From: Escherichia phage RB69
DNA: 64,000 nucleotides
Sequence record: NC_004928.1
Strand: one strand, 5' to 3'
The notes beneath the pieces are model-generated. The model did no database searches and was not told the DNA's origin. It saw nothing but the letters and a program-made list of their open reading frames with translations. This document shows, piece by piece, positions 45,187 through 45,642 of this stretch; position 1 is the first letter of the stretch, and each line of letters starts with the position of its first letter. Made by a program: the position numbers and the translations under genes.

Positions 45187-45642
45187 TTATTTTAGATCTT
45201 CGGCCCAATCTAGTTTTAAGGGTTCTTTGTATTCACGGTCGAGAATAACCGGAATAGCTACATCACCACTGAATGATAGTTGGCCAACGTTATATGATAA
45301 CGTTATATGTGGAGTGTAGTCGTCGAAATCATGAGTAGCACCTAAAGCTCGTGCGTACTGATGACGACATCTAAGATATTCGGAATCAAGAACTAAAACC
45401 AGTACAGCGCCGTCATCGGTTTTCCATACCTCAAGGTGTCCTGATTCGGCAACAGAATAACTACCACTAGATGTAGTATATGGTATGTTTACACGTGAAT
45501 AACAAATTGTTGAATGAAGCTTTTCACGTGGTACTGGATTAGGAATTCTTAATTTGCGCTGGAGGTCTTCCAGCGCATCAAGTGTTAATTCCGAAAATTT
45601 AGCTGCGACGTAGAGGCCTTGTGAAAAGTCCTCAAATTTCAT
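45187..45642 (-). CDS. 57B: 2H phosphoesterase, Acb1-like anti-CBASS nuclease (gene 57B position)
   Basis: 151 aa; two H-x-[ST]-x motifs (LHSTI, PHITL); immediately upstream of 57A and gene 1 as T4 57B is. Confidence 0.6.

Follow-up and report, generated by a model that had tools for sequence, protein, structure and literature searches.

The 57B gene of Escherichia phage RB69 as a predicted acb1 encoding an anti-CBASS 2H phosphoesterase

A reading frame of 151 codons in the genome of Escherichia phage RB69 (NC_004928.1; the 64,000 nucleotides analyzed here are referred to as the window) most likely represents acb1, the orthologue of T4 gene 57B. We estimate at about 0.95 the probability that it is the acb1 gene of an RB69/PhAPEC2-like Mosigvirus coliphage and that its product would act as a 2H phosphoesterase cleaving the cyclic di- and trinucleotides of CBASS. 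Gene, structure, mechanism and in vivo role are already established for the orthologues of phages T4 and FBB1, and identical proteins have already been deposited. The coordinates of the features under discussion are collected in Table 1.

Table 1. Features in and around acb1 and elsewhere in the window
Feature	Position	Strand	Basis
acb1 (gene 57B orthologue), 151 aa + stop	45187..45642	minus	ATG-started ORF, PF23474 match
First catalytic motif H43-S-T45-I (T4 H44, T46)	45505..45516	minus	regular expression and residue mapping
Second catalytic motif H112-I-T114-L (T4 H113, T115)	45298..45309	minus	regular expression and residue mapping
C-terminal lid segment, residues 144-151 (T4 145-152), including stacking W146 (T4 W147)	45190..45213	minus	T4 alignment
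gp3, tail sheath stabiliser	46666-47256	minus	
Gene 1, dNMP kinase	45877-46611	minus	PF21448, E = 8.8e-97
57A, tail-fibre chaperone	45642-45872	minus	PF17594 GP57, E = 2.4e-24
Ip7-type internal head protein, 108 aa	44783-45109	minus	phrog_2667, E = 8.3e-39
ipI, internal protein I	44449-44748	minus	PF11634 IPI_T4, E = 1.5e-50
51-nt intergenic element, three copies, 67-100% identical	44400-44450, 44753-44803, 45128-45178	minus	
tRNA-Met and tRNA-Arg	42783-42941	minus	ARAGORN, Rfam
Vs.4/Acb2 homologue, 88 aa	29583-29849	minus	PF24729 Acb2_Tad1_hairpin, E = 6.5e-18; PDB 7UQ2 'Vs.4', E = 1.4e-30
NrdC.11 orthologue, RlaP-family Pol-beta nucleotidyltransferase	23330-24319	minus	PF10127, E = 9e-13; phrog_388, E = 3e-126
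NrdC.10 orthologue, P-loop protein	21998-22948	minus	weak sub-threshold AAA/STAND P-loop and HTH matches

Reading frame and family assignment

According to the listing of open reading frames with translations, the frame opens with ATG on the minus strand and encodes 151 residues. A regular-expression scan of the translation detected exactly two H-x-[ST]-x patterns, HSTI (residues 43-46) and HITL (residues 112-115), so that the location, the length and both motifs given in a preliminary description of this DNA were reproduced. Homologues were found by tblastn in 1469 phage records, and 82 records carry the protein at an identity of at least 99%. Nei-Gojobori dN/dS values, calculated with synonymous sites near saturation, amounted to 0.057 against T4 57B; the comparison with Yersinia phage phiR1-RT gave 0.088 and that with Acinetobacter phage Acj9 0.167. 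These low ratios point to strong purifying selection on the frame. It is clearly a real gene and not a chance reading frame. Scanned against Rfam, the entire window returned two tRNAs only and thus no RNA element over acb1.

The product matched the Pfam model 'Anti-CBASS protein Acb1' (PF23474) with E = 7.4e-59 and 198.1 bits (gathering score, 27 bits), residues 8-149 covering the entire model (1-144 of 144). The best match in the PDB was Acb1 of Erwinia phage FBB1 (E = 3.5e-59, residues 9-148), represented by the apo structure 7T26 and by 7T27, which contains a 3'3'-cGAMP analogue (Hobbs et al. 2022, PMC9117128). The FBB1 protein, which exhibits 64% identity in a multiple alignment, possesses an identical catalytic tetrad and served as structural template for the mechanism proposed below. 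It differs from RB69 Acb1 by a one-residue insertion after the beta-hairpin and by F and Y in place of W73 and F106, which RB69 and T4 share, all of these residues being aromatic. Two further PDB entries named Acb1, 9Q2G and 9Q2Y, matched weakly. BLASTP comparison with T4 gp57B (NP_049750.1, from NC_000866) yielded a gap-free alignment with 130 of 151 residues identical (86%, E = 4e-103). The preliminary description had read the frame as an Acb1-type 2H phosphoesterase and had proposed an alignment with T4 57B as a check. The full-length Pfam match, the match to 7T26/7T27 and the catalytic residues in their places bear out this reading, and the alignment retained the His pair along with the high overall similarity.

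The crystal structure of FBB1 Acb1 displays a compact 2H phosphoesterase fold (PMC9117128), which we also predict for the RB69 protein; a different fold would be very unlikely at the observed identity to 7T26. A single-sequence AlphaFold2 run gave an unusable model (mean pLDDT 40.9, pTM 0.31). Scans of the product against PADLOC and NCBIfam returned no match and are uninformative here, since these libraries do not include anti-defence proteins.

Existing database labels would suggest a different function. PHROG 755, which the product matched with E = 1.9e-65, is described as 'RNA ligase', as are the RefSeq orthologues of T4 and PhAPEC2, and one Acinetobacter phage record lists a 'putative RNA 2',3'-cyclic phosphodiesterase'. 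The gene could thus encode an RNA ligase, that is, a LigT-like 2'-5' RNA ligase or a 2',3'-cyclic phosphodiesterase engaged in RNA or tRNA repair. LigT-type enzymes (PF13563) share with Acb1 the two HxT/S motifs and an acid-base chemistry that proceeds via a 2',3'-cyclic phosphate; Pfam 2_5_RNA_ligase2 indeed gave a weak match (E = 0.026), and genes for tRNA-Arg and tRNA-Met are located about 2.2 kb downstream of acb1. However, the match to PF13563 scored 15 bits, below the cut-off of 27 bits, and was confined to residues 76-131, compared to 198 bits for the Acb1 model, and the 'RNA ligase' label reflects an older inheritance at superfamily level. Moreover, the T4 orthologue biochemically cleaves cyclic oligonucleotides, and its deletion produced a growth phenotype on CBASS hosts only (PMC9117128). 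Unlike generic 2H phosphoesterases, Acb1 has a pocket and a lid specialized for cyclic di- and trinucleotides, and the residues of this pocket that stack on the bases and read the adenine are all conserved in RB69. We therefore regard a role as RNA ligase or RNA-repair enzyme as very unlikely, while RB69 Acb1 may have a minor side activity on RNA 2',3'-cyclic ends.

The title of the preliminary description also called the protein an anti-Pycsar nuclease, and this part did not hold. Like Acb1, the anti-Pycsar enzyme Apyc1 is a nuclease of phages and breaks down immune signals made of cyclic nucleotides. Unlike Acb1, it adopts an MBL fold with a Zn-binding HxHxDH motif, acts on cyclic mononucleotides and targets Pycsar. 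It constitutes a separate MBL family (PMC9117128), and the RB69 product, which matched the Acb1 model only, showed no MBL- or Apyc1-type Pfam match at E <= 1 (solely Acb1 and the weak 2H match were returned) and lacks the HxHxDH motif. A dual enzyme that would degrade cCMP and cUMP in addition to the CBASS signals is extremely improbable, as it was concluded from reciprocal effector assays that the activities of Acb1 and Apyc1 are restricted to CBASS and Pycsar signalling, respectively, and the two proteins share no structural or mechanistic homology (PMC9117128). We thus infer an anti-CBASS activity only for RB69 Acb1. The wording of the earlier title can probably be traced to that of the paper in which Acb1 and Apyc1 were described together.

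Functional residues and proposed mechanism

T4 57B was recognized as Acb1 by activity-guided fractionation (PMC9117128). The enzyme cleaves 3'3'-cGAMP, cUA, cAAA and cAAG and leaves cGG, cA4 and 3'2'-cGAMP uncut; it requires a ring of two or three nucleotides that contains one adenosine or more. The reaction is metal-independent and cuts 3' of adenosine via a cyclic phosphate intermediate. Its functional parts comprise the HxT/HxT tetrad (H44/T46/H113/T115), the stacking residues Y12/W74/F107/W147, the adenine-N6 contact E141 and a lid formed by residues 145-152, with the H44A/H113A double mutant serving as a catalytically inactive control. Activity was seen from about 15 min of T4 infection, T4 delta-acb1 suffered a replication defect of more than 300-fold on CBASS-carrying hosts, and 9 of 9 further homologues assayed cleaved 3'3'-cGAMP and cAAA (all PMC9117128).

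All nine functional residues (T4 numbering Y12, H44, T46, W74, F107, H113, T115, E141 and W147; PMC9117128) were found in the RB69 protein at n - 1, namely as Y11, H43, T45, W73, F106, H112, T114, E140 and W146. At its N-terminus, RB69 Acb1 lacks one residue relative to the T4 protein (MKF... compared to MMEF...). None of the 21 differences between the two proteins falls on a functional residue, and T4 Acb1 is matched in the HxT/HxT tetrad, the stacking aromatics, the equivalent of E141 and the C-terminal lid. The lid itself contains a single, conservative change, E148 for D149 (LDWAEDLK vs. LDWADDLK), and the C-terminus is reached at the same point. In an alignment of ten homologues from Straboviridae with 27-86% identity to the RB69 protein (Tequatrovirus, Mosigvirus, Tegunavirus, Krischvirus, Slopekvirus and T4-like phages of Acinetobacter, Aeromonas and Vibrio), H43, T45, H112 and T114 were invariant, with E140 almost as strictly conserved.

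By homology to T4 and FBB1 Acb1, the following mechanism can be proposed. Y11, W73, F106 and W146 would form stacking contacts with the bases of a cyclic di- or trinucleotide joined by 3'-5' linkages, E140 would read the adenine N6, and the C-terminal lid would shut over the ligand. At the tetrad H43/T45/H112/T114, the 2'-OH of adenosine would attack the adjacent 3'-5' phosphodiester to give a 2',3'-cyclic phosphate intermediate and subsequently a linear product with a 3'-phosphate. In this manner, 3'3'-cGAMP, cUA, cAAA and cAAG would be removed before the CBASS effectors fire, and the infected cell would avoid abortive-infection suicide. Enzymatic activity, substrate range and anti-CBASS effect of RB69 Acb1 are hence predictions from its orthologues.

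Alleles of acb1 that have lost their function are found in nature, and type II Panoptes selects for them; acb1 is disrupted in Bas43, and escape mutants of Bas35 have been obtained under type II Panoptes (PMC13577387). One might thus suspect an inactivated or decaying copy in RB69. This is highly improbable in view of the full-length, intact frame, the presence of all catalytic and binding residues, the 99-100% identity in the 82 records mentioned above and the low dN/dS. The orthologue of vB_EcoM_WFL6982 is identical at the protein level (100%) and that of PhAPEC2 shares 99% identity; further Mosigvirus orthologues occur in HX01 and in ChristianSchoenbein (BASEL phage Bas46). The latter was checked for disruption and contains an intact CDS of 456 nt. 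Over 24 kb around acb1, the RB69 sequence exhibited about 97% nucleotide identity to the Mosigvirus genomes ChristianSchoenbein, ST2 and phiC120.

Gene neighbourhood, expression signals and the Ip cassette

On the minus strand, the gene order is gp3, gene 1, 57A, acb1, the Ip7-type gene, ipI, homologues of trna.4/trna.3/trna.2 and the tRNA genes. With 57A, gene 1 and gp3 upstream and IpI downstream, in the order known from T4 and PhAPEC2, the frame occupies the 57B position that had been claimed for it, including the slot after 57A and gene 1 in which T4 acb1 resides. The TAA stop codon of 57A and the ATG of acb1 overlap by one base (TAATG; junction sequence GAAGAATAATGAAA), whereas the overlap measures 4 nt in T4. 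This stop-start overlap suggests co-transcription and translational coupling, and acb1 is therefore most likely expressed together with 57A, to which it would be translationally coupled. A sequence resembling a T4 late promoter, TATAAATA, is situated within gene 1 (46227-46234, minus strand), upstream of both 57A and acb1, and its aligned position is kept in T4 and PhAPEC2. The window contains no excess of the motif (6 copies, with 8.06 expected), and the copy in gene 1 doubles as codons for conserved residues. As the count does not exceed chance and these codons would be conserved anyway, its role as a promoter can only be suggested. A scan for consensus sigma-70 promoters and terminators between 44300 and 47400 revealed no excess over shuffled sequence (promoters: 14 found, 11.4 +/- 3.3 expected).

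IpI has been described as the inhibitor of the GmrS/GmrD restriction enzyme. In T4, ipI directly follows acb1, while an Ip7-type gene lies in between in RB69. The adjacency of Acb1 and IpI has been remarked upon before (Hobbs et al. 2022, PMC9117128). The intervening frame shares 94% identity with an ORF of JK42 that is labelled 'Ip7 protein', and some 66% with Ip7 of RB32. It is missing between acb1 and ipI in T4, in PhAPEC2 and in most Mosigvirus relatives, whereas JK42 and about 25 other records, FL18 and G2469 among them, carry it at an identity of at least 90%. Within the Ip locus, the Ip7-type gene represents a variable cassette. Its product begins with MKTYQEFI, a capsid-targeting-like N-terminus that is common to the ipI ORF. 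A 109-aa ORF at 31449-31778 (minus strand), which had no Pfam match, likewise opens with an internal-protein N-terminus (MKTYQEFIA) and probably encodes another internal head protein, close to the IpIII/IpII position of related phages.

The genes acb1, ip7 and ipI are each followed by one copy of a 51-nt element. Read on the minus strand, the element contains an early-promoter-like arrangement (TTTACA, 17 nt, TATAGT or TACTAT) overlapping a stem-loop of 11-12 bp. It resembles the PeSL promoter/terminator cassettes of T4-type phages, which have been proposed to mediate modular gene shuffling (Arbiol et al. 2010, PMC2839356; Comeau et al. 2014, PMC4122927). One could speculate that acb1 marks the edge of a modular anti-defence island (acb1, Ip7-type gene and ipI) whose genes would be swappable by recombination between the 51-nt cassettes, or that the Mosigvirus Acb1 has a shifted substrate range that would alter its interplay with a cA3-guarding Panoptes; we consider such extensions of the basic Acb1 assignment unlikely.

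The tRNA locus was predicted by ARAGORN and Rfam to hold two genes only, Arg-TCT and Met-CAT, compared to eight tRNAs, segB and two small RNAs in T4. In the RefSeq entry of PhAPEC2, three tRNAs are listed at the same locus and on the other strand, apparently an inconsistency in annotation.

A predicted sponge, a nucleotidyltransferase and implications

The window contains a second gene related to cyclic-nucleotide signals. A homologue of Vs.4/Acb2, located about 15 kb from acb1 and unlinked to it, was assigned, by homology, a start at an ATG lying within a longer frame that opens with TTG; scans against PADLOC and NCBIfam gave no match for it. Its similarity to Vs.4 suggests a cyclic-nucleotide sponge; in T4-type phages, such a sponge is the second anti-CBASS protein. 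Like T4, RB69 would thus oppose CBASS signals with a nuclease as well as a sponge.

The preliminary description had further connected the phosphoesterase to a nucleotidyltransferase module elsewhere in the window, which probably corresponds to the NrdC.11 homologue with its neighbour NrdC.10. Both are homologues of conserved T4-type genes, and the NrdC.11 orthologue is kept in T4 and PhAPEC2. We also considered the NrdC.11 homologue as a CD-NTase, i.e., a CBASS cyclase, and rejected this assignment: the protein matched the RlaP family (PF10127) instead, and PADLOC defence models matched neither it (E <= 0.01) nor the NrdC.10 homologue. NCBIfam likewise returned nothing for either protein. Being of the RlaP type, about 21 kb away from acb1 and devoid of any defence-model match, the module does not sustain a link to cyclic-oligonucleotide defence or to acb1. 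The companion of acb1 that matters in this DNA is instead the Vs.4/Acb2 homologue.

The assignment of acb1 adds little in terms of discovery; its value is a practical one, for annotation and for phage biology. Many records still name the gene 'RNA ligase' or 'hypothetical protein', although acb1 is the proper name. With an intact acb1 and an intact homologue of Vs.4/acb2, the phage would be expected to withstand many CBASS systems. Guard systems of the Panoptes type sense the depletion of cyclic nucleotides (PMC13577387), and from published work a phage equipped with acb1 and acb2 is predicted to be detectable by such guards. These predictions would be relevant to the choice of therapeutic Mosigvirus phages against E. 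coli strains that bear CBASS or Panoptes.
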